This document shows, piece by piece, positions 39,418 through 63,168 of a stretch of 64,000 bases of DNA (the stretch's first letter is position 1; each line of letters starts with the position of its first letter). Below the pieces are notes generated by a model that did no database searches, had not been told where the DNA came from, and worked only from the letters and a program-made list of their open reading frames with translations. Origin of the DNA: an uncultured Gemmatimonadales bacterium (GTDB taxonomy: Bacteria; Gemmatimonadota; Gemmatimonadetes; Longimicrobiales; RSA9). The position numbers and the translations under genes are program-made. Location of the stretch: positions 64,001 to 128,000 of the forward strand of contig CAWCUS010000003.1 in the NCBI GenBank assembly GCA_963798845.1. The letters are read 5' to 3'.

Positions 39418-39577
39418 GGCTGTCTTCCGGCGGCCGCGGCCATCGCCGCGGCGAGGATTGCATTGTCAGTTCCCGGGCTCGCAATGCAACGCCCGCGCCA
39501 GCCGGGCCGTCACGCCCGCCCGCTCGGTCCGAACGCCATGAATGGGAAAAGAACGAAGGACCGCTTCCGCAGGGCGG

Positions 39578-40534
39578 CTACTTCGGTGCCGCGGCGCCGA
39601 GCGGAACGCTGAGACCGAGCGAGACCCCACCCGAGTCGCTGGCCCCCACGTACGGTCGAACCTCCGTGGTCCAGCGCGACCGCCCGGACACGGCCATGCT
39701 CCGCCCCACCAGCGTACCGATGGCCGCACCCGCGGCCACGTCCGAGAGGAAATGGGCGTCGTGGTAGACCCGCGCGGCCCCGACGCTCCCCGCCAGCCCG
39801 TACGCCAGGAGGTCGACCCAGAGCGACGGCGACTCCGCCGCGATCACCGACGCCACTGCGAACGCCTGCGTCGTATGTCCGGACGGGAACGACTCGTCCC
39901 CCGAGAACGGCACGAACGCTTCAGTCCCCAGCTTCTGCCGCGGCCTCGCTCGCCCGGCCGCCAGCTTGATCAGCGGCGTCACCACCCCTCCCGCCACCAC
40001 GCTCGCAGCCAGCGCCTCCACCGCCGTCCGGCGGAGCGTGGGACGGTGCCACACCATCCCACCGCCGTACAACCCCGCCACCACCCCGAACGAGGCGAGC
40101 TGACCCAGCGGCTCGACCGCGGCGAAATAGACGCTGATTCCCCGGTTCCGACGCCCATCCTCGAAATGCTCCACCGGGCCATCGGCCGCATGCACCAGCA
40201 GCACCGCCGCCAGACCGGAGCCGGGCACCAGCAGCCACTGCGTCGTCGTCCAGCGCGCCGGCGCGGAAAGGCCGTGCAGCACGAGCCCGGCCCCGAAACG
40301 CAGGTCCGCCGAGAGCACCGACTCGCTTTCCCGCGGTCTCGCGGTCGACCCAGGCGAACGGGAGACCGGGACCTGCTGCGTCGCTGACGTGTCGGGAACC
40401 ACGACGGCCGCGGAGGCGGGCGGAATCCCAACCTGTCCGGCGGACGGACTCGCGTTCGCAGCGAAGCCCAGGAGCACGACCAACGGCAACAGGGTTCCCC
40501 GCGCCGGGCGAACGGCGTGCTCGCCCGTTTTCAT
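39578..40534 (-). CDS. PAP2 family phosphatase (tandem paralog)
   Basis: K...GRARP, FPSGH, ARVYHDAHFLSDV; start approximate. Confidence 0.87.
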   Translation of the reverse strand: MKTGEHAVRPARGTLLPLVVLLGFAANASPSAGQVGIPPASAAVVVPDTSATQQVPVSRSPGSTARPRESESVLSADLRFGAGLVLHGLSAPARWTTTQWLLVPGSGLAAVLLVHAADGPVEHFEDGRRNRGISVYFAAVEPLGQLASFGVVAGLYGGGMVWHRPTLRRTAVEALAASVVAGGVVTPLIKLAAGRARPRQKLGTEAFVPFSGDESFPSGHTTQAFAVASVIAAESPSLWVDLLAYGLAGSVGAARVYHDAHFLSDVAAGAAIGTLVGRSMAVSGRSRWTTEVRPYVGASDSGGVSLGLSVPLGAAAPK

Positions 40535-40632
40535 GCGCGCGCGGCGGGAGGATGAAGCGGGTGCATGACGAAAGATCTCTCCGATTCCGCCCGCCCCGCA
40601 ACCCCCGACGCCTCCGTGCGTCGACAAGCCCC

Positions 40633-40694: not shown

Positions 40695-42023
40695 ATGGTA
40701 ACCGCCTCCCGGCCCCAGGCCCCCACGCTTCCGCGCGAACGGTGGTTCACGAGCGAAGACTGGTGGTCTGTCATTCTGGGCCTTTTCCTGCTGGCCGCCT
40801 GCTGGGCGGCCTTCGTGTTGCGCGCGCCGCTCACCACGCTGGGCAGGGCGAAGCCGACTGCGTGGCCGGCCCACCCGCTCGGCCCCCACTTCGCCGAGAC
40901 CTGGCCGGCGTACGTGGCGATGCTGGCGGTGCTCACCGTTCTGACGACCGGCGCGGTGTACGTCATGACGGGGAAGGCGCGGAACTACGTCCTCGGCTTC
41001 CTCGTGCTGTTCGCGGCGTCCACGCTGGTGATGATCCTGGGGGCGCAGGAGCAGCTGAAGACCTACGGCCTCGAGACCGCGTTCTGGGCGCTGGTGATCG
41101 GCCTCGCCGTGGGCAACACCATCCACCTCCCCGTGTGGTTCCAGGCCGCAGCCGGCCGGACGGAGTTCTTCATCAAGACGGGGATCATCCTGCTCGGCGC
41201 CCAGCTCTCCTTCAACGTCATCATCGCCGGTGGCGTGTGGGGGTTCCTGGAAGCGCTGCTCATCGTCTCCGCCGGCTTCACCACCGCCTTCTTCATCGCC
41301 AAGCGTATGGGCTACGACAACCGCTTCGCCGCCGTGCTGGGCGCCGGCGGCTCGGTATGCGGCGTCTCGGCTGCCATCGCCGTCGGCGGGGCCGTGAAGG
41401 CGAACGAGAAGCAGGTCGGCTACGTCATTTCCCTTGTCGTGCTCTACGCGCTCGTGCTCATCTTCCTCCTCCCCGCCATCTCCCGCGGGATCGGGCTCAG
41501 CGAGGTGGTCGCAGGCGCCTGGATCGGAGGCTCCGAGCTCGCAGACGCCGCCGGCCTCGCCTCCGCCGCCATGATCTCCGAGAAGGCGGTCCAGGCCTTC
41601 ACGCTGGTCAAGCTCAACCGCGACGTCATGATCGGCTTCCTCTGCTTCCTGTTCGCCTACCTCGCCGTCACGCGGTGGGACGTCAAGGAGTCCGGCACCA
41701 AGCCGAGCCCGAGGGTCATCTGGGACCGCTTCCCCAAGTTCGTCCTTGCCTTCCTGGTCACCTCCATCGTGATCACCGCCCTCGACAGCAGCATCGGCCC
41801 GGACGTCGCCACCTACATCGTCGCTCCACTGGGCACCATTCGCGGCTGGCTCTTCACCATCGCCTTCCTCTGCATCGGCCTGAACACCCGTATCGAGGAC
41901 GTCCGCGCCATGGGCGCCAAGCCCATCATCGCGTTCACCACGGTCGTGCTGGTCAACGTCAGCGTCGGCTTCATCCTCGCCAACCTCTTCTTCGGCGGCA
42001 TCATCGCCGCGCCGCTCAAGTAG
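40695..42023 (+). CDS. YeiH/PSE family (putative sulfate exporter) membrane transporter
   Basis: SEDWWSV, EFFIKTGIILLG, GSVCGVSAAIA, GAWIGGS, VKLNRDVMIG, RFPKFVL. Confidence 0.9.
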   Translation: MVTASRPQAPTLPRERWFTSEDWWSVILGLFLLAACWAAFVLRAPLTTLGRAKPTAWPAHPLGPHFAETWPAYVAMLAVLTVLTTGAVYVMTGKARNYVLGFLVLFAASTLVMILGAQEQLKTYGLETAFWALVIGLAVGNTIHLPVWFQAAAGRTEFFIKTGIILLGAQLSFNVIIAGGVWGFLEALLIVSAGFTTAFFIAKRMGYDNRFAAVLGAGGSVCGVSAAIAVGGAVKANEKQVGYVISLVVLYALVLIFLLPAISRGIGLSEVVAGAWIGGSELADAAGLASAAMISEKAVQAFTLVKLNRDVMIGFLCFLFAYLAVTRWDVKESGTKPSPRVIWDRFPKFVLAFLVTSIVITALDSSIGPDVATYIVAPLGTIRGWLFTIAFLCIGLNTRIEDVRAMGAKPIIAFTTVVLVNVSVGFILANLFFGGIIAAPLK

Positions 42024-42159: not shown

Positions 42160-42311
42160 TAGACTCCGGCCCGCCCCTGCCGGCTCTGAAAAACGGAAGG
42201 TAGACCTTGGAGGCGACGCAGGCGGTTGCGGGGGACGGGAGGGGGAACCCGAGGCCGGCGTCCGAGCGGAAAGCGGACGAAGGGGGTCCCGCGGGCGCGG
42301 AGCGCGCGCTG

Positions 42312-43742
42312 ATGGCGCGTCCGGAGCTGAGCATTCGGACGCGGATCATGGGCGTGTTCGCGCTGCTATTCGTTCTGTGCACCACCATCACGGTGGCGGC
42401 GGTGGTGTTCCTGTCGGCCTTCCAGGCCAAGATCCGGTTCCTGGAGAACGCCGGGAGCTATTCCTTCGAGATCGAGGAAGCGCGGCGCAACGAGAAGAAT
42501 TTCTTCCTGTACGGGACGGGTCTTCCGGAGGCGCTTGCGAGCGCGACGCTGGCGCAGAGCCACCTGGAGCGGAACGTGGACCAGATCCGCTCGGTGGTGG
42601 GTGGTGCGAAGTACGAGGAGATGGAGCGAAGTCTCGCGCGCTACCGAAGCCTGCTGGAGGAGCTGGTCCGACTGGAGGAAGGCGCGGAGAGGGCGACGGC
42701 GTCGTCGTCCCGGGGGATCGAGGTGAGACTGCGGACCGAAGGCGCGCAGCTGCTGAACGACGCCGAGGAAATGATCGCCGGCGAGCGGTCGGCGGTGTCT
42801 GCGATGCTGCACACCTCCATGCTCGCGGCGTTCGCTTTCCTGGGGTTGATGCTGCTTCTGATGGTGGTGTTCGCGGGGTTCGTGATCCGGACGGTGGTGC
42901 ACCCGCTGGAGCGGTTCATGGATTACATCGAGCGGATCGGCGCCGGGAACTACGAGCCGATCCAGCCGGTGCGGCGGTTCCGGGACGAGTTCTCCTCCCT
43001 GGCGCTGGCGTTCAACCGGATGCTGGGGGAGTTCGTGACGCACCAGGAGCAACTGGTGCAGTCGGCGAAAATGGCTGCGGTGGGGACGCTGACGTCGGGG
43101 ATCGCGCACGAGCTGAACAACCCGCTGAACAACATCGGGCTCACGGTGGAGGCGCTGCTGGACGACCTCGACGCCTACCCGGAGGAGGACAAGCGGCGCA
43201 TGCTGGAGCAGGCGTACACGCAGGTGGAGCGGGCGAGCACCACCGTGCGGAACCTGCTGGACTTCACGCGCAAGGACCGCTCCGCCTTCACCACGGTGTC
43301 GGTGGCGAAGGTGGTGGCTTCGGTGCTGCGACTGGTGCAGAACGAGGCGCTGCTGGGCGGCGTGGAGTTCGAGAGCTCGATCCCCGGTGACCTTCCCCCG
43401 GTGCGGGGCAACCCGCACGACCTCGAGCAGGTGTTCCTGAACCTCTGCCTCAACGCGATCCAGGCGATGCCGGACGGCGGCCGGGCGGAGGTCACGGCCG
43501 TGGCGGAGGGCGAGGAGGTGAGGGTGGATGTCGCCGATACCGGTGCCGGGATCGCGCCGGAGCACCTGGATGAGATCTTCGATCCGTTCTTCACGACGAA
43601 GGAGCCGGGAGAGGGCACGGGCCTGGGACTGTCCGTGAGCCACAGCATCATCGAGCAGCACCGGGGCCGGATCACCGTGGCCAGCGAGGTCGGGAAGGGA
43701 ACGACGTTCTCCGTATACCTGCCGGCGGCGGTCGGGAAGTGA
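42312..43742 (+). CDS. Membrane sensor histidine kinase (periplasmic helical sensor, HAMP, NtrB-type HisKA/HATPase)
   Basis: Two TMs, ARRNEKNFFLY sensor motif, AHELNNPL H-box, NAIQAM, DTGAGI, PFFTTK, GTGLGL; alternative TTG start 42207. Confidence 0.93.
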   Translation: MARPELSIRTRIMGVFALLFVLCTTITVAAVVFLSAFQAKIRFLENAGSYSFEIEEARRNEKNFFLYGTGLPEALASATLAQSHLERNVDQIRSVVGGAKYEEMERSLARYRSLLEELVRLEEGAERATASSSRGIEVRLRTEGAQLLNDAEEMIAGERSAVSAMLHTSMLAAFAFLGLMLLLMVVFAGFVIRTVVHPLERFMDYIERIGAGNYEPIQPVRRFRDEFSSLALAFNRMLGEFVTHQEQLVQSAKMAAVGTLTSGIAHELNNPLNNIGLTVEALLDDLDAYPEEDKRRMLEQAYTQVERASTTVRNLLDFTRKDRSAFTTVSVAKVVASVLRLVQNEALLGGVEFESSIPGDLPPVRGNPHDLEQVFLNLCLNAIQAMPDGGRAEVTAVAEGEEVRVDVADTGAGIAPEHLDEIFDPFFTTKEPGEGTGLGLSVSHSIIEQHRGRITVASEVGKGTTFSVYLPAAVGK

Positions 43743-43765: not shown

Positions 43766-44692
43766 ATGAATCATCTGGCGATCTATCTCCCCGTTGCGGG
43801 GAGCGCGGTGAGCATCCCGCTCCTGATCGGTCTCGGGGCCGTGGTGGGGTTCATGTCCGGGCTGTTCGGGGTGGGCGGCGGCTTCCTGATGACGCCGCTG
43901 CTCATCATGATCGGGATCCCACCCACGGTGGCGGCCGCCTCGGACTCGAACCAGATCGTGGCCGCGTCGTCGTCGGGGACGTACGCCCACGCCCGCGCGG
44001 GATCCGTGGACACGCCAATGGGGCTGCTGCTCCTCGTGGGGGGCATCGCGGGTGGCTCGCTGGGCGTCGTGCTGATCAAGTTCCTGCGGGCCATGGGGAA
44101 CGCCGACTTCGTGATCACGGTGACATACGTGGTGATGCTCGGCGGGATCGGCGCCTACATGTTCGTGGAGAGCCTGCGCAGCATGCGGACGGGCCCCGAC
44201 GTACGGGAGGTCGCGGCGAAGCCGTCGATGTACGCTCGGGTGGTCCAGGCGCTGCCGTGGAGGATCCGATTCCGCCGCTCGAACGTGCAGCTGTCGGTGC
44301 TGATGCCTCTGCTGCTCGGCGTTCTGGTGGGCACCCTGGCCGCGATCATGGGTGTGGGAGGCGGCTTCATCATGGTCCCGGTCATGGTATACCTGCTTCG
44401 CATGCCGATGCACGTGGTGGTCGGAACCAGCCTCTTCCAGATCCTCTTCACGTGCATCAACGTCACGGTCCTCCAGGCGACGCTCAACCACACGGTGGAC
44501 TTCATCCTCGCCCTCTTTCTCCTCATTGGCTCCGTGGTGGGCGCGCAGCTCGGAGCGCTGGTGAGCAAGCGGCTGAAGGCGGACCAGCTCAAGATCCTCA
44601 TGGCCATCATCGTCCTGGTCGTCACGGGCAAGATGCTCCTGGGGCTGGTCCTGCCGCCGGAGTTCCTGGTCAGTTACGCGGGAGGCCACTGA
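43766..44692 (+). CDS. TauE/SafE (TSUP) sulfite/sulfate transporter family protein
   Basis: SGLFGVGGGFLMTP and AIMGVGGGFIMVP repeats, VVGTSLFQ. Confidence 0.92.
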   Translation: MNHLAIYLPVAGSAVSIPLLIGLGAVVGFMSGLFGVGGGFLMTPLLIMIGIPPTVAAASDSNQIVAASSSGTYAHARAGSVDTPMGLLLLVGGIAGGSLGVVLIKFLRAMGNADFVITVTYVVMLGGIGAYMFVESLRSMRTGPDVREVAAKPSMYARVVQALPWRIRFRRSNVQLSVLMPLLLGVLVGTLAAIMGVGGGFIMVPVMVYLLRMPMHVVVGTSLFQILFTCINVTVLQATLNHTVDFILALFLLIGSVVGAQLGALVSKRLKADQLKILMAIIVLVVTGKMLLGLVLPPEFLVSYAGGH

Positions 44693-45582
44693 TGCCTGGC
44701 CAACGGATGTCCACGGCCGCGGGCGTGCTCGCCGCCTGCTGCGTGGCCGTCGCGATCGTCGTCCCCGCCCCCTCGCGGGTGTCGGCGCAGGAGCCGGGCG
44801 CGACGGCGGCGCCCGACCAGGACACGACCCGCGGGCCGGTGGTGGAACGGGCGCACGAGCTGCCCGGGGAGACGGCTGCCGCCGCGGTCGGTTCCGGCGC
44901 GGTCGTGGTGGAGCCGGCCGAGATCGTGGCCGGGATGTTCTACGCCGGGGCCACCATCCACGTGAGCGCGGTGGTCCCGCAGGGTGCGGCCGTGACGGTA
45001 CTCTGCCACAGCGAAGGTCACCCGCTGACCCTGAAGCGGAAGGGCAAGGCGCTCGGGCTGCTCTGGTTGAACGTGGGCGACGTGTCCTTCGAGGATGTCC
45101 CGACCGCGTACCTGCTGGCCACGTCGCGGCCCCTGACGTCGCTGGCGCCGGATTCCGTGCTCGAGCAGCTCGACCTCGGGTTCGTGGCGCTCGCCTCGCG
45201 CTGCGACGCGGACGCCTCGGACCCTGTACTTTTCAGCGAGCTGGTACGTCTGAAGCAGAAGGAGCGGTTGTGGACGGTGGCGGAGAACACGGTGGCAGTC
45301 CAGCCGGCAGAAGGCGACGCCGGGCTGGCCACGACCGACATCACCCTGCCCCCCAAGGCGGGCCCAGGCGAGTACGAAGTGCTGGTGTACGCCTTCCAGG
45401 ACGAGCGGCCGGAGCTCATCGGGAGCGCGCGGCTCCGCATCCGGCAGGCGGGCGTGACTGGGTTCATCACCGACCTCGCTACGGACCACGGGCTTCTGTA
45501 CGGAATCCTCGCGGCGACCGTGGCGATCGCCGTGGGCCTGCTCACGGGTCTCGTCTTCGGGATGGGCTCGAAGGGGCACTGA
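44692..45582 (+). CDS. TIGR02186-family exported protein with C-terminal TM anchor (usual TauE partner)
   Basis: Signal peptide; FYAGAT, KRKGKALGLLWLN, VPTAY, GLLYGIL..., KGH end; coupled to the tauE stop. Confidence 0.8.
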   Translation: MPGQRMSTAAGVLAACCVAVAIVVPAPSRVSAQEPGATAAPDQDTTRGPVVERAHELPGETAAAAVGSGAVVVEPAEIVAGMFYAGATIHVSAVVPQGAAVTVLCHSEGHPLTLKRKGKALGLLWLNVGDVSFEDVPTAYLLATSRPLTSLAPDSVLEQLDLGFVALASRCDADASDPVLFSELVRLKQKERLWTVAENTVAVQPAEGDAGLATTDITLPPKAGPGEYEVLVYAFQDERPELIGSARLRIRQAGVTGFITDLATDHGLLYGILAATVAIAVGLLTGLVFGMGSKGH

Positions 45583-45589: not shown

Positions 45590-48574
45590 ATGATGCTGGG
45601 GAGCGTGCGCGCGCTGTTCGGCCGCCGCGGGGCGGATTCCGCCGAGAGGATCCGGAAGAAGCTGACGACCTTCCGGGACCTGGTGGAGAAGAACGACCGC
45701 GTGCTGGAGCTCATCGCCGACGCAGGCGAGAAGCTGGGCGGCGAGTACGTGTTCGACACGAAGTATCTGGACGACCTCGTCCGGGACCTGAAGAGCGCCG
45801 TCCACGGGGTGGTCGAGGACCTCAACACCCTCACCGGCAACCGCTACCCGGAACTGCTCCAGGTCGTGGCGTCCCTCGACGCACGCGTCCGCGCGGCGCT
45901 GGAATGCCGCACCCGAATTCCCGACGGCCCCTACATCGTCCCGGTGGAGGAAGCCGGCTTCGAGCAGGTGGAGGTCGTGGGGGAGAAGCTCGGCCGACTG
46001 GGCGAGATGCAGACCCGGCTGGACTGCCGGATCCCGGATGGGTTCGTGGTCACGACGCGCGGCTGTCGGGACCTGCTCGAACAGGCGGGGGTCCTCGACG
46101 CCGCGGAGTCGCTCCGCTCGCGCCTGGGCGAAGACGGAGCGGCGCTGGAGTCGGAAGCGCTGGAGCTGCAGGCCCGCGTCCTTTCCGCCTCGGTTCCGCG
46201 TGACGTGGCCCGGAGCATCCGGCGCGAGGTGGACCGGCTCCAGGCTCGCCAGCCCGGAGCGCTCTTCGCCGTGCGCTCCAGCGCGGCGGAGGAGGACGGA
46301 GCGCTCACGTTCGCCGGCCAGTACGAGACGGTGCTCGGCGTCGATGCCGACGACGTGGTCGACGCGTACCAGCAGGTGGTGGCGAGCCTCTTCTCGCCCA
46401 ACGTGATCCGCTATCAGCAGCACCACCGTCTTCCGCCCGGCTGCGGTCTGATGGCGGTCGGCTGCCTTTGCATGGTCCCGGCGCGGGCGAGCGGCGTCGT
46501 CTACACCCTGAACCCTTCGGCCGCGGCCGCCCGGGTCCAACTCGTGACCTCAACCTGGGGCCTCGGCAAGGCCGTCGTCGAGGGCGAGGCGCCCGTGGAC
46601 CGGTTCGAGGTGCTGCGGGAGCCGGGCTACCCGGTGGCCGAGACCCGCCTGGCTTACAAGTCGTGGAAGTACGTGGCCCGTCCGGGCCGTGGGACGGTGC
46701 GGGAGCCGGTGCCGGAAGAGCAGCGCGGAGCGCCGTCGCTCACGCCGGCCCAGGTTTCGGAGCTGGCGGACATCGCCTGCCGGATCGAGCGCTACATGAA
46801 GGCGGCCCAGGACATCGAGTGGGCCATCGACGACGAAGGCCGCCTGTTCATCCTCCAGGCGAGGCCGCTCAGCATCCCGGCCGACCGGGACCACGAGCGT
46901 CAGGACCTGTCCGACGTCGTCGCCCGCTACCCCGTCCTGCTGCGCGGGCGAGGAGACGTGGCCTGCCGCGGGATCGGGATCGGCCGCGTCCACGTGGTCG
47001 AGCACGAGGCGACCCCCGGCGACGTCCCTCCCGGCGCCGTGCTGGTGGCACGGACCGCGACGCCCCGGCTCGGCGGGGCGCTGGCAGGGGTGAGCGCGGT
47101 CGTCACCGACCTCGGCAGCGCCACCGGCCATTTCGCAGCCGTCGCCCGCGATTTCCGCGTCCCCACCATCGTCTCCACCGGGGTCGCGACGCGCACGCTG
47201 CTGGAGGGGATGGAGGTGACGGTCGACGCCGAAGAGAACGTGGTCTACGAGGGCCGAATCGACGAGCTGCTCCGGCACCAGCTGCTCATGCGCTCGTCCT
47301 TCGAGGACACGAACGAGTTCCGTCTCCTGCGCCGCGTGCTGCGGACCATTGCCCCGCTCGGACTTCGCGACCCGCAGAGCTCCGGGTTCTCGACCTCCCA
47401 GTGCCGCACCTACCACGACGTGATCCGCTTCGCCCACGAGAAGGCCATCGCGGAGCTCACGGACATCGGGTGGGTCAAGGCGACCGGCGACCAGTCGCAC
47501 CTCCGCCGACTCGACCTGCCGATCCCGCTCGACCTGATCCTCATCGATCTCGGGGGGGGGTTCCGCGTCCGCGCCGGCCACGATACCGCGAGCCTCGATG
47601 ACCTCACCTCACGCCCGCTGCTGCCGCTCCTCGAAGCCCTCACGGCCGAGGGCATCTGGGAGACCGCCCCCGCCGACATGGACATGGACGGCTTCATGTC
47701 CAGCGCGACCCGCTCCATGGCACTCACCGGGCCGCTGGCGAGCCGGCCGACCCAGAACCTCGCCATCGTGGGCGGACGCTACCTGCACCTCAGCCTCCGC
47801 CTGGGCTACCACTTCAACATCGTCGACGCCCACCTCGGGGACACCCCGGCGGACAACTACATCTATTTCCGCTTCGCCGGCGGCGTGACGGAGCTGACCC
47901 GGCGCTCGCGCCGCGCAACACTGCTCAAACAGATCCTCGAGGACCACGGCTTCGTGACCGAGGGAGGCGAGGATCTGGTCATCGGACGCGTGAAGGGCCT
48001 CGCCCCCGACATCATGGAAGAGCGCATGCGCATGCTGGGGCGGCTCATCGGTTTCACGCGGCAGCTGGACGTGTTCCTCAGAAACGACACGCTCGTGGAC
48101 CGCTACGTGGAGCGGTTCATGGGCCGGGCAACACCCCTGGACGACGGGACTTCCGAAAACGGAATGGAGAACGCCATGAGCAGCACTGCCGACGTGTTGG
48201 TGCTGGACGACGAGCCGATGGTGGCTGAGCGTCTGAAGGACCACCTGGACCGGAAGGGCTATCAGGTCGAGGTGTTCACCGATAGCCAGACCGCCATCGA
48301 TCGCCTCGCCGTGCAGCGCTTCGACGTGGTCATCACGGATCTCAAGATGGCCGGGCCGACCGGGCTGGACGTCCTTCGGTTCGTGCGGGACAACAGCTTC
48401 GGGACACAGGTCATCATCATCACCGGATACGGCTCGATGGACGCGGCGAGGAAGGCGGAATACACCGGCGCCTTCGATTTCGTGAACAAGCCGTTCAGCA
48501 TGAAGACGCTCGAAACCATGACCCGCAAGGCCGCCAGGAAGGCCCGGAAGCTCCACGCCAAGGAGCCTCTGTGA
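45590..48574 (+). CDS. PEP-synthase/PPDK-like protein (ATP-grasp + phospho-His swivel domain + unknown domain) fused to a C-terminal receiver domain
   Basis: AVRSSAAEEDG..FAGQYET, QDIEWAI, ILQARP; TGHFAAVARDF; no PEP/pyruvate TIM barrel; C-terminal LDDEP...TDLKM...ITGYG...KPF. Confidence 0.88.
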   Translation: MMLGSVRALFGRRGADSAERIRKKLTTFRDLVEKNDRVLELIADAGEKLGGEYVFDTKYLDDLVRDLKSAVHGVVEDLNTLTGNRYPELLQVVASLDARVRAALECRTRIPDGPYIVPVEEAGFEQVEVVGEKLGRLGEMQTRLDCRIPDGFVVTTRGCRDLLEQAGVLDAAESLRSRLGEDGAALESEALELQARVLSASVPRDVARSIRREVDRLQARQPGALFAVRSSAAEEDGALTFAGQYETVLGVDADDVVDAYQQVVASLFSPNVIRYQQHHRLPPGCGLMAVGCLCMVPARASGVVYTLNPSAAAARVQLVTSTWGLGKAVVEGEAPVDRFEVLREPGYPVAETRLAYKSWKYVARPGRGTVREPVPEEQRGAPSLTPAQVSELADIACRIERYMKAAQDIEWAIDDEGRLFILQARPLSIPADRDHERQDLSDVVARYPVLLRGRGDVACRGIGIGRVHVVEHEATPGDVPPGAVLVARTATPRLGGALAGVSAVVTDLGSATGHFAAVARDFRVPTIVSTGVATRTLLEGMEVTVDAEENVVYEGRIDELLRHQLLMRSSFEDTNEFRLLRRVLRTIAPLGLRDPQSSGFSTSQCRTYHDVIRFAHEKAIAELTDIGWVKATGDQSHLRRLDLPIPLDLILIDLGGGFRVRAGHDTASLDDLTSRPLLPLLEALTAEGIWETAPADMDMDGFMSSATRSMALTGPLASRPTQNLAIVGGRYLHLSLRLGYHFNIVDAHLGDTPADNYIYFRFAGGVTELTRRSRRATLLKQILEDHGFVTEGGEDLVIGRVKGLAPDIMEERMRMLGRLIGFTRQLDVFLRNDTLVDRYVERFMGRATPLDDGTSENGMENAMSSTADVLVLDDEPMVAERLKDHLDRKGYQVEVFTDSQTAIDRLAVQRFDVVITDLKMAGPTGLDVLRFVRDNSFGTQVIIITGYGSMDAARKAEYTGAFDFVNKPFSMKTLETMTRKAARKARKLHAKEPL

Positions 48575-48614
48575 TCACTCGAAGTCGCGAAGCGCACGGA
48601 GGGGGAGCAACCCC

Positions 48615-48992
48615 ATGACCAAGACCCCCAAAAAGGTGCTGCTGCTGGACGACGAGCCCGTGGTCTGCGAACGCCTGAAGCCCGCCCTCGAGAAGCTCGG
48701 CTTCTACGTGGAGTCCTACACCGAGAGCCAACCGGTGGTCGACCGCGTCCTCGAGGAGAGGTTCGACGTCCTGGTCACGGACCTGAAGATGCAGAAGCCC
48801 GATGGCCTGGAGATCATGAACTTCGTCCGCGAGCACTCGCCGGCCACCAAGGTGATCATCATCACCGGCTTCGCCACCGTCGAGACGGCGACGGAGACCC
48901 TCAAGGGCGGGGCCGTGGACTTCATCGCCAAGCCGTTCAAGATCCGGACGCTCTGCGACCGGATCGTTCAGCTCACCCGGGAAGAGGCGTGA
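48615..48992 (+). CDS. Stand-alone response regulator receiver protein
   Basis: LLDDEP, TDLKM, ITGFAT, AKPF. Confidence 0.92.
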   Translation: MTKTPKKVLLLDDEPVVCERLKPALEKLGFYVESYTESQPVVDRVLEERFDVLVTDLKMQKPDGLEIMNFVREHSPATKVIIITGFATVETATETLKGGAVDFIAKPFKIRTLCDRIVQLTREEA

Positions 48993-49017: not shown

Positions 49018-49830
49018 TCAGACCGTGTAGTCCGGCGCCGCCAGGTTCTCGCGGTCCACCCGCTCGACGCCGGGCACGCTCCCCGCGACCTCGATCACCG
49101 CGTCCACCAGCGACGGAGGCCGCAGCCGGCCCCGCAGGTACACCGCCCCGTCCTGTGCGCGCAGCCGAACCTCGGCGGAGAACGTCCGCTCGTCCGCCGC
49201 CAGCGCCGCCTGCACGCGGCTCGCCAGACCCAGGTCCGCCATTGCCTTCCGGCTCTCGGACGTCGGCTTGAACCGCGGCGACCGCGACGCCAGTACCACC
49301 AGCGCGACCGCGTCCTCCACCTCCAGCGTACGCAGGTTGATGCACAGGTCGTACAGCCGAGGGTCGAGCCAGTCCACGCCGTACAGGAAGCGCGTCCACT
49401 TCTCCCGCTGCCGGTCCAGCTTCTCGATCCGCTCCTCGGCTTCTTCCTCGCTGAGATCCGAGCGCTCCTGCAGCACTCGGTCCCGGAAGTCCGCCGGCGC
49501 GATCAGCCGCACCCGCACGACGTGCGAAATCCCGGGCAGCAGCAGGTGCCCCGCGTTGCCGTGGTACACCAGACGACCCGCCTGCGCGCGCTCCACCAGC
49601 GCCGCCTGCACGTAGGCGATGTACCGCCGCCGCTCGTGCTGCACCCGGTCCCACAGCCGCGGCGGCTCCAGCAGCGCCTTCCGCAGCGCATCCTCCGAGG
49701 CACCGAAGCGCGTCGCTTCATGCACCACTTCCTCACGGCTCACCACCGTATAGCCGAGCTCGGCAGCCACCGCCTCCGCCAGCTCCTGCCCTCCGCTCCC
49801 AGAGCCCCGGGATATCGTAATGATCGACAT
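49018..49830 (-). CDS. Cytidylate kinase-like family protein with C-terminal BON domain
   Basis: ITISRGSGSGG P-loop-like, YHGNAGH, LYGVDW.DPRLYDLCIN; C-terminal GAVYLRG...VPGVERV. Confidence 0.85.
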   Translation of the reverse strand: MSIITISRGSGSGGQELAEAVAAELGYTVVSREEVVHEATRFGASEDALRKALLEPPRLWDRVQHERRRYIAYVQAALVERAQAGRLVYHGNAGHLLLPGISHVVRVRLIAPADFRDRVLQERSDLSEEEAEERIEKLDRQREKWTRFLYGVDWLDPRLYDLCINLRTLEVEDAVALVVLASRSPRFKPTSESRKAMADLGLASRVQAALAADERTFSAEVRLRAQDGAVYLRGRLRPPSLVDAVIEVAGSVPGVERVDRENLAAPDYTV

Positions 49831-49883
49831 AGCGCTTCGTTGCCGCGGCCTCCCTGCCGGCCCCCGATCGGGGCCGGGCCAAT

Positions 49884-49933
49884 TCGTTCCTGCGTTCACG
49901 AATCACTGTGGCCGCTGCCGCGCCCCGCGTCAA
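49884..49933 (-). promoter_or_regulatory. Promoter with Rex-like box upstream of the cytidylate kinase-like gene
   Basis: Minus strand TTGACG-N17-CACAGT then TCGTGAACGCAGGAACGA (49884-49901). Confidence 0.62.
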
Positions 49934-50370
49934 GACGCGGCAGGCGCGGCGGACAGCAGCTTCTCCACGGCGGCCAGGAGCTGGTCGCGGTCGATGGGCT
50001 TGGGGAAGAAGCCGTCCGGCGGCGGGACGGCGTCGCTCTTCCGGATGAACTTTTCATAGCCGTACGGGTCGCCGCCATAGCCGGTGACGGCGGTGATGAT
50101 GACCACGGGAACTCCGCTGAGGGCGGGGTCGTTCTTCACAGTCCGGTAGAAGCGTGTTCCCGAGGCCCTGGGCATGGAGATGTCCAGGGTGACGAGGTCG
50201 GGCTTGTGGCTGCGCAACATCTCCAGCGCCGCCTCGCCGTCGCCGGCGATGAGCGTCTCGTAGCCGGTGTCGCGGAAAAGCATGTCTAGATAGTCGACGA
50301 CATCCTGCTCGTCATCGACGATGAGGATCTTCCTGGCCGGCCCTTGCGCGGCCTGGTCCGGTGCGGGCAT
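49930..50370 (-). CDS. Stand-alone response regulator receiver protein
   Basis: ILIVDDE, TLDISMP, IITAV, PKP. Confidence 0.9.
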   Translation of the reverse strand: MPAPDQAAQGPARKILIVDDEQDVVDYLDMLFRDTGYETLIAGDGEAALEMLRSHKPDLVTLDISMPRASGTRFYRTVKNDPALSGVPVVIITAVTGYGGDPYGYEKFIRKSDAVPPPDGFFPKPIDRDQLLAAVEKLLSAAPAAS

Positions 50371-50413
50371 GGCTCGCCTCCTTGCTGCGGTATCCAAGCG
50401 ACCCGGTCCGCCG

Positions 50414-50944
50414 TCAGGCGCCGGGCGTGGTGCGTTTCAGCGCCTCCAGGGCGCGTCTGAGGGCGTGGGGCTCCGCCTGGGTGAGCTGGCGGCGCACCTC
50501 GTCCTGGAGGGTGATGCGATCCTCGTCGCCGGGGCTCTCTTCGAGGCCGAGGGCGCGCTGGACGCAGCGGACGTAGTCCAGCGGCTTGACGGGCTTCTCG
50601 AGGTAGACGCCGGGCCCCGATATGACGCGGCTCTCGACAATGTCCTCGAGCTCGGCGCGTCCGAGCTCATCGCGGGCGTGGGCGGTGACGATGAGGACGG
50701 GGATGCGGGAGAGCGCGTGGTCCTTTCGGAGCTCGTAGAGGAGCTTGTGGCCGCTCTTCCCGGGCATGACGAGGTCGAGGGAAATGAAGTCGGGTGGCTG
50801 CTGGCGGATGAGGTCGAGGGCCTCGTCGCCGTCCGAGGCGGTTCGGACCTGAAATCCTGCGTCCCTCAGGATCTGAGCGAGGTAATCGCGGACGTCCGGC
50901 TCATCATCCACCACCAGCACGGTCCTGTCCTGTGGCCGCTCCAT
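50414..50944 (-). CDS. Response regulator receiver protein with C-terminal helical extension
   Basis: VLVVDDEP, SLDLVMP, IVTAH, LEKP. Confidence 0.9.
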   Translation of the reverse strand: MERPQDRTVLVVDDEPDVRDYLAQILRDAGFQVRTASDGDEALDLIRQQPPDFISLDLVMPGKSGHKLLYELRKDHALSRIPVLIVTAHARDELGRAELEDIVESRVISGPGVYLEKPVKPLDYVRCVQRALGLEESPGDEDRITLQDEVRRQLTQAEPHALRRALEALKRTTPGA

Positions 50945-50948
50945 GGCG

Positions 50949-52088
50949 TCATCCCTTCGTGTGGTTCTGCCCGTCGGCCCCGTCGGCCTGTTCGGCGGCC
51001 GCGGAGGTGGGCAGCGTGTTGCGAGGCAGCTCGATCCGGAACACCGATCCTTCTCCCTCGTGAGAGGTGAAGGAGATCCGACCCCCGTGCTGGTGCACGA
51101 GGCGGCGTGTGGTCAGGAGCCCGAGGCCGGTGCCACGGTCCGAGCCTTTCGTCGTGAAGAACTTGGAAAACACCTTCCGGCTCAGCTCGTAGTCCATGCC
51201 CTTGCCGTTGTCCGCCACCTCGTAGACCAGGACGCCGTCGTTCTCGGAGACGGTCACGCGGACCACGAACTCGCGGTCCTTGTCGGCCACGGTGCACGCG
51301 TCGATGGCGTTGGAAACCAGGTTGGCCAGGGACGTATGGATCCCGGCCTCGTCCAGCAGCGCCGGGGCGATGCCGTCCTGCGGCTCGAAGTCGAGGCGGA
51401 TGCCGGCGCGGGCGGCACCATCGCGGAACAGATCGACAGCGTTCCTCGCCGGCAGTACCGGGTCGGTGAGGGCGACCACGGCGGGGCGTCCCTTGGCGAA
51501 GTCCAGGAACTCCTTCATGAAGGCGGAGATCCGGTTGACGTTCTGCTCCAGGGTGGTCCAGCCGCGGGCGATGCGCTCGTCGTCGCCGAGCTGGATACCG
51601 GTGTTCACGGCATACATGCCGCCTTCCAGGCCCATGAGGATGTTCTTCACCCCGTGGGCGACGCCGGCCACGGTCTCGCCCACGGCGGCGAGGCGCTCGG
51701 CTTCCCGCTTCTCCCGCTCGAGGCGCTTCACGACGGAGATGTCGGTGGACATCTCAATGACGTAGGGGATGTCGCCGTTGGGTCGGACCAGGGGGACCAT
51801 ATGGACCAGGTAGTCGATCTCCCGGCCATTTCCCATCACGCCCTCCTCCTCCTGCTCCCGGATGGAGCCGTCCGCGAAGGTGGCCAGGGCGGCGCACCGA
51901 AGGCAGGGCTCGTCGCGCCCCTTGTAGACCTGGTAGCAGGGCCGCCCCTGCCAGTCCCCGAACTCCGACTCGAAAGCCAGGTTCGCGTCCACGATCCCGT
52001 AATTGCGCCCGATGACGCTGATGGCGACGGGCACCTCGTCGTAGAGGTGCGTGTGGAGCCAGTCCCGGATCTCGTCCGTGTCCATCAT
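50949..52088 (-). CDS. Cytoplasmic PAS sensor histidine kinase
   Basis: PAS with CYQVYKGRDEPCLRC; AHGVKNIL H-box, NAIDAC, DNGKGM, FFTTKG, GTGLGL; overlaps upstream stop. Confidence 0.92.
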   Translation of the reverse strand: MMDTDEIRDWLHTHLYDEVPVAISVIGRNYGIVDANLAFESEFGDWQGRPCYQVYKGRDEPCLRCAALATFADGSIREQEEEGVMGNGREIDYLVHMVPLVRPNGDIPYVIEMSTDISVVKRLEREKREAERLAAVGETVAGVAHGVKNILMGLEGGMYAVNTGIQLGDDERIARGWTTLEQNVNRISAFMKEFLDFAKGRPAVVALTDPVLPARNAVDLFRDGAARAGIRLDFEPQDGIAPALLDEAGIHTSLANLVSNAIDACTVADKDREFVVRVTVSENDGVLVYEVADNGKGMDYELSRKVFSKFFTTKGSDRGTGLGLLTTRRLVHQHGGRISFTSHEGEGSVFRIELPRNTLPTSAAAEQADGADGQNHTKG

Positions 52089-54193
52089 GGCAGCGATCCT
52101 CCTTCCGTGCCGGGCTGCCGCTCGCGCGTGGCGGCGCGTGCCACGTCCGTGGCTGTCGGGCCGGGCGAGCGCAGGGGCGTGGATGCGGCTGTGGTCCGGG
52201 CGGGCTCGAGCTGCTGGAGGGCGCCGGAACGGTCCGCGTCGTGGCACGTTTCGCAGCGTGCCAGATTCTCGGGATGCTCCCCCGGCTCCGAGCGCAGGGC
52301 CTCCTCGTGGCACGCGATGCACACGCCGTGCATGGCGTCCATGTAGCCCGGGGCGGCGCGCCACCGCTCCTGCGCCGCCGGGATGATCGCGCTCTGCCCC
52401 GCGTCGCGAGCGTGGCACTCCATGCACGCCGTCGACGTGGCGTAGGTCCTGGTCGCGATGCCCGGGGCGTGGCACTGCTGGCAGCCGTCGTTCCCTGCCA
52501 GCGCCTCCACGTGCGACGCATGGTCGAAGACGGCGGTGCTGTCGTACATGTCCCGGTGGCACGCGCCACAGCGGCTCGCTTCCTCGAGCGGGAGATTCAG
52601 GTGATGGCAGGTTCCGCAGCCGTCGTCGCCGCCAGCGCGCTCCACGTGGGCGTCGTGGTCGAACAGGACGGCGTTGCGGTCCCGACCCCCATCGATGAGC
52701 AGCAGCACGGCCTCGCCCGGATCCATCATCCCCGGTCCACCCGTGCCGCCAGCCGCCTCCGTTTCACCCGCTCCGCCGGGGACGTTCGATGCCGGCGATA
52801 CCGCGTGCGCGTGCAGCGTCTCGCTCGCGGCGCCGGCCAGCGCCAGCAGCCTCGCCTGCCCCGGCCGCTCCGAAATGGTCCCGGCCACGGAGCGCGCGTC
52901 CGCCACGGGTACCGGGCGCGGGCGCGCCCCCGAAAGCGGAAGGAACAGGAGCGCGATCACGAAGCCGGCGAGCGCCATCCCGCTGTTCAGGTGGGGGCCC
53001 GCGAGGCGCGGCGGGAGGAGCCCGTGCACGGTGGTGGGCTCGAAGCTCCGAGGCCTGGCGCGGACGGTGTCGGCGGAAACGTCGTCGTACACGCGCAGGT
53101 GCTCGACGAAGAAGATGAAGACCAGCATGAACGCCGACACGATCCCGACGCTCACGGCGAGCTCTTCCCAGCTGGGGAAGTACGGCATGTCCGCAGGCCT
53201 CGCGAACGCCACGACGGAAACGTCCAGCCGGTACAGGATCATGCCGGCCACGGTCATGGCGCCCGCCACGCCCACGCCGCGGATGCTGTTCCGGACCCGC
53301 GGGATGGCCATGAGCACCACGGGGATCCCGGCACTGAGGGCGAGCTCGGCCACGAACAGCACCCCGTGCCAGGACGGCTGAAGCGCACTGACCAGCACGC
53401 CGCGGGCCGCCAGGTCGCCCAGCCGCAGGGCCAGGTACAGCGTGAGCACCACGGCCGCCGCGGCGCCCAGGCCGGACATCTGGCGCCGGTGAAGCGCGTG
53501 GCCGAGGAACCGGTGGGCGAACATGGACTCTGTCACCACCATCGACAGACCCAGAGCTACGGCGGAGACGAAGAAGAGCACGTAGATGATCGGCGAGTAC
53601 CAGAGCGGGTGCAGCCGGTAGGGCGTGATCAGGAAGAGGGAGCCCAGCGACGACTGGTGCAGCGTGGAAAGCATGATCCCCAGGATGACCAGCGGGATCG
53701 TCACCTTCCGGAGCGCGGCCAGAGTCGTGCGGAACGGCCGCCAGCGGAAGAGGGGGTGCTCCAGGATCGCGGGAGCGAACTCCAGCGCCAGGACGGTCAG
53801 GTAGAGCATGACGCACATGGCGACTTCGAACAGCACGGAGTGGTGCTGCCAGTGGAACAGCGGGTGCCAGATGCGCCAGGGGAGACCGAGGTCGTAGAGG
53901 AGCCCCACCGCCACGGCCGCGTAGCCGAGGAACGCCGTGAGCACCGCGGGGCGCGCGAAGGCGTGGTAGCGCTCCAGGTGGAAGATGTACACGGTGGCGG
54001 CCATGACGAACCCGCCAGCCGCCAGCGCAACGCCGGACATGACGTCGAAGCCGATCCAGAGGCCCCACGGGGTCGCGTCGGACAGGTGGGTCACCGCCCC
54101 GAGCCCCCGGGTGTAGCGCACCATGCTGACGGCGACGAGCACGCCGACCAGCGTCCACAATACCAGCTTCAGCCGCACCAGCCGCTCACGCAT
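52085..54193 (-). CDS. NrfD/HybB/HmcC-type membrane subunit fused to a class III (c3-like) hexaheme cytochrome
   Basis: PWGLWIGFDVMSGVALAAGGF, DLGLPWRIWHP, STLHQSSLG; extra TM; two FDHxxH plus six CxxCH (CGTCH, CGACH, CQQCH, CMECH, CIACH, CETCH). Confidence 0.9.
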   Translation of the reverse strand: MRERLVRLKLVLWTLVGVLVAVSMVRYTRGLGAVTHLSDATPWGLWIGFDVMSGVALAAGGFVMAATVYIFHLERYHAFARPAVLTAFLGYAAVAVGLLYDLGLPWRIWHPLFHWQHHSVLFEVAMCVMLYLTVLALEFAPAILEHPLFRWRPFRTTLAALRKVTIPLVILGIMLSTLHQSSLGSLFLITPYRLHPLWYSPIIYVLFFVSAVALGLSMVVTESMFAHRFLGHALHRRQMSGLGAAAAVVLTLYLALRLGDLAARGVLVSALQPSWHGVLFVAELALSAGIPVVLMAIPRVRNSIRGVGVAGAMTVAGMILYRLDVSVVAFARPADMPYFPSWEELAVSVGIVSAFMLVFIFFVEHLRVYDDVSADTVRARPRSFEPTTVHGLLPPRLAGPHLNSGMALAGFVIALLFLPLSGARPRPVPVADARSVAGTISERPGQARLLALAGAASETLHAHAVSPASNVPGGAGETEAAGGTGGPGMMDPGEAVLLLIDGGRDRNAVLFDHDAHVERAGGDDGCGTCHHLNLPLEEASRCGACHRDMYDSTAVFDHASHVEALAGNDGCQQCHAPGIATRTYATSTACMECHARDAGQSAIIPAAQERWRAAPGYMDAMHGVCIACHEEALRSEPGEHPENLARCETCHDADRSGALQQLEPARTTAASTPLRSPGPTATDVARAATRERQPGTEGGSLP

Positions 54194-55076
54194 TGGGACC
54201 TCCATCGGTCTCTGGCGACGGGGGCGACGCCGGCGCACCGCCGCGATCCACCTCGGTCGCGTCCTCCGCTCCCACCTCCGCCACGCCGACCGGGTCGACT
54301 CCGGCCACCGGGATGCCCGCCGCCGTCGCGTCCATGGCCAGACGCATGCGCCGCTGGATTACCCAGTAGATCCCCGTCATCAGCGTCCCCATGCCCAGGA
54401 ACACACCGGGCACCTTGTCGAGGGAAGCCCAGGAGAGGAGCGGCAGGGAGCCATCGCCCACGTGCCCTCCCCAACCGAGGAAGCCCAGCGACGCGTCCGA
54501 GATGTAGAGCACCGAGGTGCCGCCCACTTCCGTCTCGCCCCACACGTGGTCGAGGTAGCGGTGCGGATGCGCGGCGACCCGGGCGTGTGCTTCCCGCAGC
54601 AGGTCGTCGCGGGTGCCGAAGAGCAGCGCCTCCTCGGGGCACGCCTCCACACACGCCGGCTGCTTCCCTTCCTTCAGTCGCGGATAGCACATCTCGCACT
54701 TCCGCACGTACGGCACTGCCTCGTCCCAGTCGTAGCGCGGGATGCCGTACGGGCATGCCACCATGCAGTAGCGGCAGCCTATGCAGAGGGAGGAGTCATA
54801 GAGCACCGGCCCTTCCGGCGACTTCTGCATGGCCCCCACGAGGCACGCGCTCACGCACGCCGGCTCGAGGCAGTGACGGCACTGCTGCTTGACGTACAGG
54901 TCACCCGGACGTCGAAGCACGGTGGAGAAGCGGCGGGCGGAAAGGTCGTCCACCGCCTGCTGCCCGGGCCCCATGCCGTCCGGCGGAAGATCGTTCACGT
55001 CCTTGCACGCCAGCACGCACGACTCGCAGCCGACGCAACGTGTGGTGTCCACCAGAATGGCAGGCGAGCGGATCAT
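54186..55076 (-). CDS. HybA/HmcB-type 4x[4Fe-4S] protein with C-terminal TM anchor
   Basis: CVGCESCVLAC, CRHCLEPACVSAC, CIGCRYCMVACP, CEMC...PACVEACP, GETEVGGTSVLY. Confidence 0.9.
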   Translation of the reverse strand: MIRSPAILVDTTRCVGCESCVLACKDVNDLPPDGMGPGQQAVDDLSARRFSTVLRRPGDLYVKQQCRHCLEPACVSACLVGAMQKSPEGPVLYDSSLCIGCRYCMVACPYGIPRYDWDEAVPYVRKCEMCYPRLKEGKQPACVEACPEEALLFGTRDDLLREAHARVAAHPHRYLDHVWGETEVGGTSVLYISDASLGFLGWGGHVGDGSLPLLSWASLDKVPGVFLGMGTLMTGIYWVIQRRMRLAMDATAAGIPVAGVDPVGVAEVGAEDATEVDRGGAPASPPSPETDGGPNA

Positions 55077-55774: not shown

Positions 55775-55777
55775 GGG

Positions 55778-61709: not shown

Positions 61710-61803
61710 CGTGTTCATCTCCGGAGCGCAGTGATCGTGGCGCCTGCTGAACGCCCGCGCCGCCTCTGTTCTCGACATCGCGGGCGTGCGCGCGCGTGCC
61801 CAA

Positions 61804-61854: not shown

Positions 61855-61895
61855 GTCCCTCGTCCGGCGGGTGGGCGCCGGCGCAGGGCGCGCAA

Positions 61896-63121: not shown

Positions 63122-63168
63122 ATCACGACCCCTCTGGCGCGCTGGCCCGCGCGGAAAGGACGGAAGAC

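Follow-up and report, generated by a model that had tools for sequence, protein, structure and literature searches.

What would a protein with the ATP-grasp and phosphohistidine domains of phosphoenolpyruvate (PEP) synthase, and with a response-regulator receiver at its C terminus, be doing in an operon with an anion permease? The question is raised by a locus in a 64,000-nucleotide stretch of DNA from an uncultured Gemmatimonadales bacterium (contig CAWCUS010000003.1), the whole of which we call the window. The protein, referred to here as the enzyme, is encoded by the fourth gene of a five-gene operon with the order HAMP kinase, TauE, TIGR02186-like protein, enzyme, and stand-alone receiver (REC2). 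This module tracks dissimilatory sulfite reductase across phyla and is nearly confined to bacteria with dsr genes. The reading that we favor, at a probability of roughly one-half, is that receivers phosphorylated by the kinase gate a phosphotransferase whose product the permease requires for its function. The G+C content of the window is ~70%, and genes were therefore called by third-position GC. The operon genes and the domains of the enzyme are as follows.

42207..43742, + strand: HAMP-HisKA-HATPase_c sensor kinase, first operon gene (Pfam HAMP 2.4e-09, HisKA 1.3e-13, HATPase_c 1.2e-29)
43766..44692, + strand: TauE/SafE (TSUP) anion permease (PF01925, E 1.6e-49)
44692..45582, + strand: Alph_Pro_TM/TIGR02186-like protein (PF09608, E 1.2e-40; TIGR02186, 69.6 bits against a cut-off of 255)
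45590-48574, + strand: the enzyme, 994 amino acids, comprising the next five features
45590..45970, + strand: residues 1-127, family-specific N-terminal extension without counterpart in canonical PEP synthases
45971..46885, + strand: residues 128-432, PPDK_N ATP-grasp nucleotide-binding domain (PF01326, E 5.8e-71)
47027..47236, + strand: residues 480-549, PEP-utilizers swivel phospho-His domain (PF00391, E 1e-15)
47267..48175, + strand: residues ~560-862, C-terminal domain without known fold, presumed to bind the acceptor, replacing the PEP/pyruvate TIM barrel
48176..48574, + strand: residues 863-994, fused receiver RECa (PF00072; Response_reg at 869-977, E 6.5e-24)
48615..48992, + strand: REC2, stand-alone receiver of 125 amino acids, last operon gene (Pfam E 6.3e-26)

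The enzyme and its fused receiver

The open reading frame (ORF) of the enzyme has a third-position GC of 0.91 and is the only frame there of coding type. An earlier note on this DNA had described a 994-residue ORF that keeps the ATP-grasp motifs and the swivel histidine, and all of the motifs it quoted are indeed present: AVRSSA at residue 227, EEDGA at 234, FAGQ at 241, QDIEW at 407, and LQARP at 422 in the ATP-grasp part, followed by ATGHFAA at 511, CRTYHDVIRFAHEKA at 605, and RLGYHF at 737. Across 62 homologous sequences, the ATP-grasp residues R229, S230, S231, E235, E410, Q423, and R425 are invariant; in the swivel motif T512-G513-H514, the histidine is likewise found in 62 of 62 sequences and the threonine in 59. 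The PF00391 domain is the only histidine-carrying domain of the enzyme and is not a helical DHp/HPt bundle, and neither HisKA nor Hpt gave a Pfam match in the enzyme at E <= 0.01. By its sequence, the enzyme is a swivelling-domain phosphotransferase of the PEP-synthase/PPDK superfamily. It resembles PEP synthase (PpsA) and PPDK (PDB 2ols, 8a8e, and 9dae) in its domain order, with ATP-grasp at the N terminus and then the mobile phospho-His domain and its T-x-H motif. However, it has no TIM barrel, and instead carries a 114-residue N-terminal extension, a C-terminal domain without solved relatives, and the fused receiver. The PEP synthase 2ols can be aligned only from enzyme residue 115 onward, and conserved positions of the extension in the 62 homologues are F28, R29, L31, N35, L39, A45, G51, F55, and D56.

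The most conventional reading would be an ordinary PEP synthase (pyruvate, water dikinase) to which a receiver became attached by chance. Indeed, the best NCBIfam matches are PEP synthase models, and some sources name homologues "pyruvate, water dikinase." However, those matches score far below the curated cut-offs (NF005057, 298.5 versus 598; TIGR01418, 280.6 versus 739.75) and are confined to residues 115 to 562. A phmmer search of the PDB recovered PEP synthases over residues 115 to 559 (2ols, E 2.4e-50), receivers over residues ~865 to 990, and nothing between them. The PEP-utilizers_C TIM barrel (PF02896) gave no Pfam match in the enzyme at E <= 0.01, an alignment-based AlphaFold2 model of residues 556 to 866 is not a barrel, and hhalign, in which a profile of this region was compared with C termini bearing the barrel motif IGSNDLTQ from eight canonical PEP synthases of related genomes, returned a probability of 0.4%. 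The absence of the barrel, as the earlier note had it, was thus upheld by Pfam, the model, and hhalign alike. Elsewhere, the host genome encodes a canonical PPDK and an enzyme-I-like gene, so the housekeeping role is already taken. An ordinary PEP synthase is contradicted by the domain tests, was rejected, and retains almost no credence with us. The same genome has three more PPDK_N frames (C1:711084-714943 and C2:279745-280845) with no PEP-utilizers_C match nearby, and these are other non-canonical ATP-grasp/swivel paralogues.

The earlier note had also remarked on an odd domain in the place of the barrel, and this stretch of ~300 amino acids does lack a relative in Pfam or the PDB. Residues 560 to 862 gave no Pfam match. 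The AlphaFold2 model (mean predicted local distance difference test [pLDDT] 74.5; predicted template modeling score 0.70) is an alpha/beta sandwich, with an antiparallel sheet packed by helices; model residues 80 to 140 and 170 to 270 have a pLDDT of >88, and model residues 1 to 75, which contain an invariant C605-H616 motif, fall at <65. Foldseek with this model against the PDB returned nothing at E <= 1e-3, its weak top rows being RecJ, cyanophycin synthetase, and YbjN-like proteins, with histidine-kinase CA/ChpT at a probability of ~0.1. In a VIA-wide fold search, the best Z score was 6.0 (root mean square deviation of 3.8 over 131 residues), below the noise level of 7 to 8 for that tool, and the top rows, coproporphyrinogen oxidase and bilin reductases, are of this subnoise kind. 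An ESM Atlas search yielded matches from the family alone.

For comparison across genomes, we used a set of 80 related loci (L001 to L080), kept from 587 relatives in species-representative genomes and analyzed by tblastn with the window proteins and by clustering of all their ORFs. The domain profile was built from 48 sequences, namely, the window and 47 of the 68 usable loci; L026, which has an internal stop, and L040 were dropped. The domain sequences in the profile are 24 to 74% identical to that of the window, and a PDB search with the profile gave a single match at E 1.1. C605, H609, D610, R613, H616, H741, N756, R775, and D827 are invariant in all 48, and closer homologues additionally keep E617, D648, D653, D698, S705, N723, Y731, R761, R771, R772, R774, R824, and Q825 invariant. 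The invariant Cys, His, Asp, and Arg residues are retained in L043, L047, L060, L065, and L075, which have no receiver in their flanks, and the C-terminal domain would thus be more than a dock for a receiver. In L046, L062, and L063, the enzyme is ~1070 amino acids long, with an extra C-terminal ~200 amino acids and no receiver in the flanks; the extra region of L063 has weak lectin-like matches (Glyco_hydro_59_C, 2.7e-06; 3keto-disac_hyd, 5.6e-05).

Among 1.84 billion representative proteins searched, the domain occurs in 1575 clusters at 50% identity, 813 of them at E <= 1e-30. In the best 150 clusters, it lies at the C-terminal end (~560 to 850) of every protein of ~830 to 900 amino acids. 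P0029 (987 amino acids) and the shorter P0073 and P0261 extend ~150 amino acids past it, and the other shorter matches among the best 150 look like fragments. The family is large, and its members are routinely named "PEP synthase," a mislabeling. Rifampicin phosphotransferases and enzymes of the PigC/RedH type are alike in applying ATP-grasp and swivel-His chemistry to a non-pyruvate acceptor, and NCBIfam models of these types matched residues 115 to 434 at 168 to 188 bits (NF041857, 179.5 against a cut-off of 999). In enzymes of these types, as in the rifampicin phosphotransferase structures 5hv1 and 5fbs, the substrate domain sits between the ATP-grasp and swivel domains, whereas the extra domain of the enzyme follows the swivel domain (480 to 549) rather than preceding it.

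The receiver at the C terminus is intact, as the earlier note had stated. In 51 fused homologues, its phosphoacceptor residues D873, D874, D917, and K967 are present in all 51 and T945 in 49. It is comparable to the receivers of receiver-fused enzymes and single-domain response regulators (CheB, PleD, CpdR, and CheY types), which likewise have an intact DD-D-T-K set and no DNA-binding output. In a literature search on receiver and response-regulator pairings, we did not encounter a PPS-type dikinase described as receiver output. The fusion places His514 and D917 on one polypeptide and is evidence of the Rosetta-stone kind for joint action of the enzyme and the receiver.

The junction was compared within 61 genomes of the taxonomic order of the window, a sample that includes four unpublished genomes (G016, G017, G020, and G038), negative in every tally. 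Among the matches listed, one running through the C-terminal domain was found in four of the 61: the window's own genome (G000), a genome of the same genus (G001), G026, and G010. The fusion is in frame without a stop in G001 (79% identity over residues 1 to 993) and G026 (68% over residues 7 to 992), and G010 is split into two ORFs covering residues 2 to 861 and 859 to 990. In G010 and in the Gemmatimonadota loci L001 and L003, a stop codon intervenes and MSTP(V/T)E(V/I)(M/L)VLDDEP comes next, in another frame, and the junction of the window, G001, and G026 reads ..MSS(T/N/A)ADVLVLDDEP in frame. Read-derived contigs from three runs (Logan, depth <4) end at 48069 and resume at 48187, with 48081-48154 uncovered and 48155-48191 nearly so.

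An assembly or sequencing error that deleted a stop codon could produce such a fusion, and the two separate genes in the close relatives G010, L001, and L003, together with the finding of no fusion in the 80 related loci, would fit that explanation. However, the same in-frame junction with no stop inside occurs in G001 and G026. In addition, a C-terminal receiver is present in 57 of 119 database homologues among the matches listed, from several sources, a list biased toward fused forms because the query region, residues 560 to 994, contained the receiver. The in-frame junctions in these other genomes led us to reject an artifact, which we regard as highly improbable. Judged from these sequences, the fusion is a real and conserved one, and RECa would have been joined to the C terminus when an intergenic stop codon was lost. 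The earlier note had suspected that the peptide MENAMSST, near the junction, marks a former start and a missed stop. The first part stands, since M863 (ATG at 48176), with GGAG 6 nucleotides upstream, is by these features the relic start codon of a once separate receiver gene, from which the receiver may be translated separately; the second does not, as the fusion is conserved.

A quick maximum-likelihood tree of receivers (112 sequences, 130 columns), in which many forks are unresolved, groups the 57 fused receivers with that of the window and five receivers that are the first of two downstream of an enzyme (63 rows; Shimodaira-Hasegawa-like approximate likelihood ratio test [SH-aLRT] support of 99). 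Split and fused forms are intermixed in this RECa clade, so fusion or fission occurred more than once. REC2 groups with receivers that are the second of two or the only one downstream (12 rows, support of 90), from Gemmatimonadota, Acidobacteriota, Myxococcota, Binatia, and Acidithiobacillales. Identity between RECa and REC2 is 48%, and both have the alpha-1 motif DDEPxVxERLK as well as TDLKM. The alpha-1 motif is absent from the receivers of the neighboring operon, which makes it likely that RECa and REC2 have one phosphodonor in common.

The module and dissimilatory sulfur metabolism

The operon genes around the enzyme bear out the earlier description of a HAMP kinase leading the operon, a second receiver following the enzyme, and no DNA-binding regulator; by Pfam, the operon encodes two receivers and no DNA-binding output. 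The sensor kinase has two predicted transmembrane segments and the H-box SGIAHELNNP, its true start is likely the ATG at 42312, and an orthologue occupies the same position in L001 to L006 and L008. Genes at the corresponding position in loci of Gemmatimonadota, Acidobacteriota, Myxococcota, Desulfobacterota, and Nitrospirota are 61 to 83% identical to TauE of the window. The TIGR02186-like protein has an N-terminal segment resembling a signal peptide and a C-terminal transmembrane helix, and its start overlaps the TauE stop codon. Alph_Pro_TM occurs in exactly the same four of the 61 order genomes as the enzyme, always just upstream; a literature search on TIGR02186, Alph_Pro_TM, and PF09608 gave nothing relevant. 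REC2 is the orthologue of the single receiver 3' of the enzyme in most related loci. In 18 orthologues (67% mean column identity), D12, D13, D56, T84, K106, and the motifs TGFAT and KPFK are invariant, and it scores 69.4 bits against the CpdR model, below the cut-off of 180.

The order kinase, TauE, TIGR02186-like protein, enzyme, and receiver is repeated in Gemmatimonadota, Acidobacteriota, Myxococcota, Binatia, Acidithiobacillales, and Desulfobacterota, in at least six phyla, and Nitrospirota have a rearranged form. Four layouts were distinguished.

Gemmatimonadota, Acidobacteriota, Myxococcota, Binatia, Acidithiobacillales: kinase, TauE, TIGR02186-like, enzyme, receiver (plus a second receiver), convergent cytidylate-kinase-like/BON gene
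Desulfobacterota: (kinase, sigma-54 regulator,) universal stress protein, TauE, TIGR02186-like, enzyme, receiver, two universal stress proteins, two MshEN/DUF202, kinase, receiver
Nitrospirota: TauE, TIGR02186-like, two universal stress proteins, two MshEN/DUF202, kinase, receiver, enzyme
Thermodesulfovibrionia-type Nitrospirota: upstream DASS-type carrier, CBS protein, and GntR regulator; downstream receiver and kinase on the other strand

Distances from the enzyme were tallied in the 44 well-flanked loci, defined as having at least 3 kb on both sides.

Receiver: 30 loci within 300 bp, 40 within 8.5 kb (plus L002, by tblastn only)
Kinase: 4 within 300 bp, 32 within 8.5 kb
TauE: 1 within 300 bp, 27 within 8.5 kb
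TIGR02186-like gene: 14 within 300 bp, 18 within 8.5 kb

The tie between enzyme and receiver that the earlier note had drawn is therefore found in homologues both as fusion and as adjacency. Its link to a YeiH transporter was not supported, since YeiH gave a tblastn match in only 2 of the 80 loci and is outside the conserved module.

Two variants of the neighborhood deserve mention. L013, L025, L036, L037, L071, and other loci of Desulfobacterota and Nitrospirota encode two tandem membrane proteins with MshEN (of the type that binds cyclic di-GMP) and DUF202 domains, which lie with several universal stress proteins between the permease genes and the kinase. A distant branch of the enzyme (~33% identity; L020, L021, L023, L028, L029, L033, L041, and L045) has a Na_sulph_symp/CitMHS-type carrier, a CBS-domain protein, and a GntR/UTRA regulator as neighbors and no TIGR02186-like gene; six of the distant-branch loci have an LCIB-type beta-carbonic-anhydrase-like gene.

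The sulfur connection suggested by the earlier note was borne out in the host genome and beyond it. With dsrA counted at E <= 1e-60, it is present in 69 of 78 distinct genomes with an enzyme homologue (47 of 50 and 23 of 29 in the two sets), 68 of them above the curated cut-off. These are metagenome-assembled genomes, so some absences may reflect incompleteness. Within the order, dsrA occurs in 7 of 61 genomes, which include all four module carriers and 3 of the 57 non-carriers. Three further sets of genes in the window belong to this context, and dsrA itself lies on the same contig, 15.5 kb past the window end.

52085-57166, - strand: DsrMKJOP-like membrane complex
61731-62732: Rex-like redox repressor (Put_DNA-bind_N and CoA_binding), directly upstream of aprB
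62980-63636: aprB, with aprA from window position 63725

Within the DsrMKJOP-like set, one protein of 717 amino acids unusually joins an NrfD-type part to a multihaem cytochrome c3 domain; the other proteins are of the Fer4_11, Nitrate_red_gam-like, and CCG/Fer4 DsrK-like types.

A counterpart of Desulfovibrio type, which the earlier note had mentioned, was found in the "nitrate cluster" of D. vulgaris and D. alaskensis (DVU0251-DVU0245 and Dde_0597-0605; Korte et al. 2014, PMC4001038), matched by gene content. That cluster encodes TauE (DVU0251), a conserved hypothetical protein (DVU0250), a PtxB-like protein, a HAMP/PAS kinase, a receiver (DVU0247), DVU0246, and a dual-specificity phosphatase; for DVU0246, the paper's annotation lists solely the PPDK ATP-grasp and mobile domains (PMC4001038). 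The two systems thus have in common TauE, a small conserved protein, a HAMP kinase, a receiver, a PPDK-like protein without the barrel, and a dsr-bearing host. They differ in that the nitrate cluster has the additional PtxB-like binding protein and phosphatase and a receiver in a separate gene, whereas the window has a fused receiver, a second receiver, and the cytidylate-kinase-like/BON neighbor. At 2235 bp (PMC4001038), DVU0246 is also shorter than the family norm of ~850 amino acids.

Transposon insertions in DVU0246, DVU0247, DVU0250, and DVU0251 abolished inhibition by nitrate, and the authors proposed a leaky thiosulfate transporter (PMC4001038). Mutants of the cluster grew normally on sulfate and were reported as no more than "mildly sick" on thiosulfate (unpublished data cited in PMC4001038). 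Nitrate resistance also followed from loss at one other locus, rex (PMC4001038). For DVU0145-0150, considered as a second Desulfovibrio copy of the module, published accounts describe lipoproteins and membrane proteins under DVU0151 and mention no PPS-like gene, so that this candidate was not confirmed. In that paper the cluster is known from mutant phenotypes alone, and our literature search with its locus tags found no citing paper besides the 2014 one. The module of the window is probably the same kind of system as the one whose loss makes Desulfovibrio nitrate resistant, and it would then bear on nitrate treatment of oil-field souring (PMC4001038).

A second pointer comes from 2026 proteomics of Dissulfuribacter thermophilus, in which three proteins were more abundant during thiosulfate disproportionation: TauE (DITHS69_1990), a "transmembrane protein co-occurring with TauE" (DITHS69_1989), and a "PEP synthase" (PMC13490349). 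The last is tagged DITHS69_1988 in Table 2 and DITHS69_1161 in the text of that paper, so that its adjacency to TauE is ambiguous. This protein, read there as gluconeogenic (PMC13490349), may be a member of the present family and may adjoin TauE. More generally, the module may supply a part so far missing from the uptake or control of sulfur oxyanions in organisms that reduce sulfate, disproportionate sulfur compounds, or possibly oxidize sulfur.

Possible mechanisms: gating, relay, or metabolic activation

In the scheme that we favor, the ATP-grasp domain would load His514 on the mobile domain, and the C-terminal domain (~560 to 862), standing in for the pyruvate barrel, would present the acceptor. 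The enzyme would act as the catalytic arm of a dedicated two-component system that consists of the HAMP kinase, RECa, and REC2 and is co-transcribed with the TauE/TIGR02186 permease pair. The kinase would phosphorylate D917 of RECa and D56 of REC2, the receivers would gate the enzyme, and, in dsr organisms, the permease would depend on the product of the enzyme to move a sulfur oxyanion, possibly thiosulfate or sulfite. The domains, the fusion, the conserved catalytic residues, the gene order, and the co-occurrence with receivers, permease, and dsrA are observed; which way phosphate is transferred, whether receivers gate the enzyme, and what the acceptor and the solute are belong to the part of this scheme that we infer. 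The mutant phenotype shared by the Desulfovibrio genes is consistent with a product of the enzyme being required for permease function.

Phosphate might instead flow through a His-to-Asp relay, the first option of the earlier note: phospho-His514 would donate to D917 or D56, with the C-terminal domain in a docking or regulatory role and the kinase as a second input or a phosphatase. Several observations would suit such a relay. The receiver is the tightest-linked partner of the enzyme, its stop and start codons often overlapping; the split receivers nested among fused ones in the RECa clade require repeated gain or loss of the fusion; two receivers are encoded with no DNA-binding output; and REC2 keeps TGFAT and KPFK, in its alpha4-beta5-alpha5 region, unchanged from phylum to phylum, pointing to a conserved partner protein. 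However, a complete HisKA/HATPase kinase is co-transcribed, and the invariant Cys, His, Asp, and Arg residues of the C-terminal domain, kept without a nearby receiver, fit a catalytic or ligand site of its own. Also against a relay, two phosphoanhydride bonds are spent per transfer in PPS-type chemistry. A literature search for receivers or response regulators combined with a PEP-utilizers swivel domain gave nothing relevant. We consider a relay doubtful. The same doubt attaches to the idea that the ATP-grasp/swivel-His unit is a receiver phosphodonor of a new kind, without a HisKA/HPt fold, that feeds RECa, REC2, or both, or shuttles phosphate between them. If true, a His-Asp relay built on PEP-synthase chemistry would couple the energy state of the cell to sulfur-oxyanion transport in dsr organisms. 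The evidence leans to gating of the enzyme by kinase and receivers, the second option of the earlier note, over His-to-Asp donation because a canonical HisKA kinase heads the operon, because RECa and REC2 have their alpha-1 motif in common, and because the polar residues of the C-terminal domain are invariant without a nearby receiver.

Another reading is metabolic activation, in which the enzyme phosphorylates a small solute imported by TauE/TIGR02186, either a sulfur oxyanion or an organosulfur compound, trapping or activating it for dsr/apr, with the receivers tuning the rate. Superfamily members other than PPS do phosphorylate small molecules, namely, rifampicin, prodigiosin precursors, and phenol. 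In the C-terminal domain, the Arg and His positions that never vary would suit an anion, distant family members lie beside another anion carrier and a CBS protein, and the module co-occurs tightly with dsrA. However, dissimilatory sulfur metabolism is not known to involve a phosphorylated sulfur oxyanion intermediate. Control by two receivers would be unusual for a housekeeping metabolic step. The normal growth of the Desulfovibrio mutants on sulfate, with a mild defect on thiosulfate (PMC4001038), also argues against it. On balance, we hold metabolic activation to be possible and rather unlikely.

Several points weigh against gating of the enzyme by kinase-phosphorylated receivers as well. 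Gating is proposed by analogy with other receiver-fused enzymes. Three well-flanked loci, L046, L062, and L075, have no receiver, so receiver control would not be universal in the family. The background rate of dsrA was measured within one order, and kin genomes are not independent of one another. DsrD (PF08679) was not found in the host genome; control genomes were equally silent, so this result is uninformative on the direction of sulfur metabolism. Finally, the likeness of the enzyme to DVU0246 is drawn from the domain list in Table 3 of the Desulfovibrio paper (PMC4001038).

Neighboring genes

Two genes flank the operon directly.

40695-42023, + strand: YeiH-like gene (PF03601), followed by a 184-bp gap before the kinase
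49018..49899, - strand: cytidylate-kinase-like (PF13189) and BON protein, convergent with the operon (Pfam 3.6e-38 and 6.6e-08)

The cytidylate-kinase-like/BON gene was found in 14 loci including the window, all of one lineage, and lies within 8.5 kb of the enzyme in 9 of the 44 well-flanked loci. Between 41900 and 49200, a promoter scan gave no promoter-like sites, and a terminator scan gave one terminator-like site, inside the kinase gene and not above shuffled sequences.

A second two-component set adjoins the module on the - strand (49930-52562), with a PAS histidine kinase at 50949-52562 and receivers at 50414-50944 and 49930-50397. Both receivers lack output domains and are 26 to 29% identical to the fused receiver, and their alpha-1 motif differs. 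On the other side, two tandem PAP2-family membrane phosphatase genes (38569-40627, - strand) are divergent from the YeiH-like gene and lie outside the conserved neighbor clusters. Farther away, genes at 21574-26972 (+ strand) encode an acetyl-CoA hydrolase/transferase, an ABM monooxygenase-like protein, a carboxyl transferase, a biotin carrier, and OAD_beta, a set of membrane decarboxylase-type sodium pump and CoA transfer genes. A 1532-amino-acid, Lhr-type large helicase is encoded at 7731-12329 (- strand), and two multihaem cytochrome genes, with c7/c3-type and MtrC-like matches, lie at 17321-19845 (- strand).

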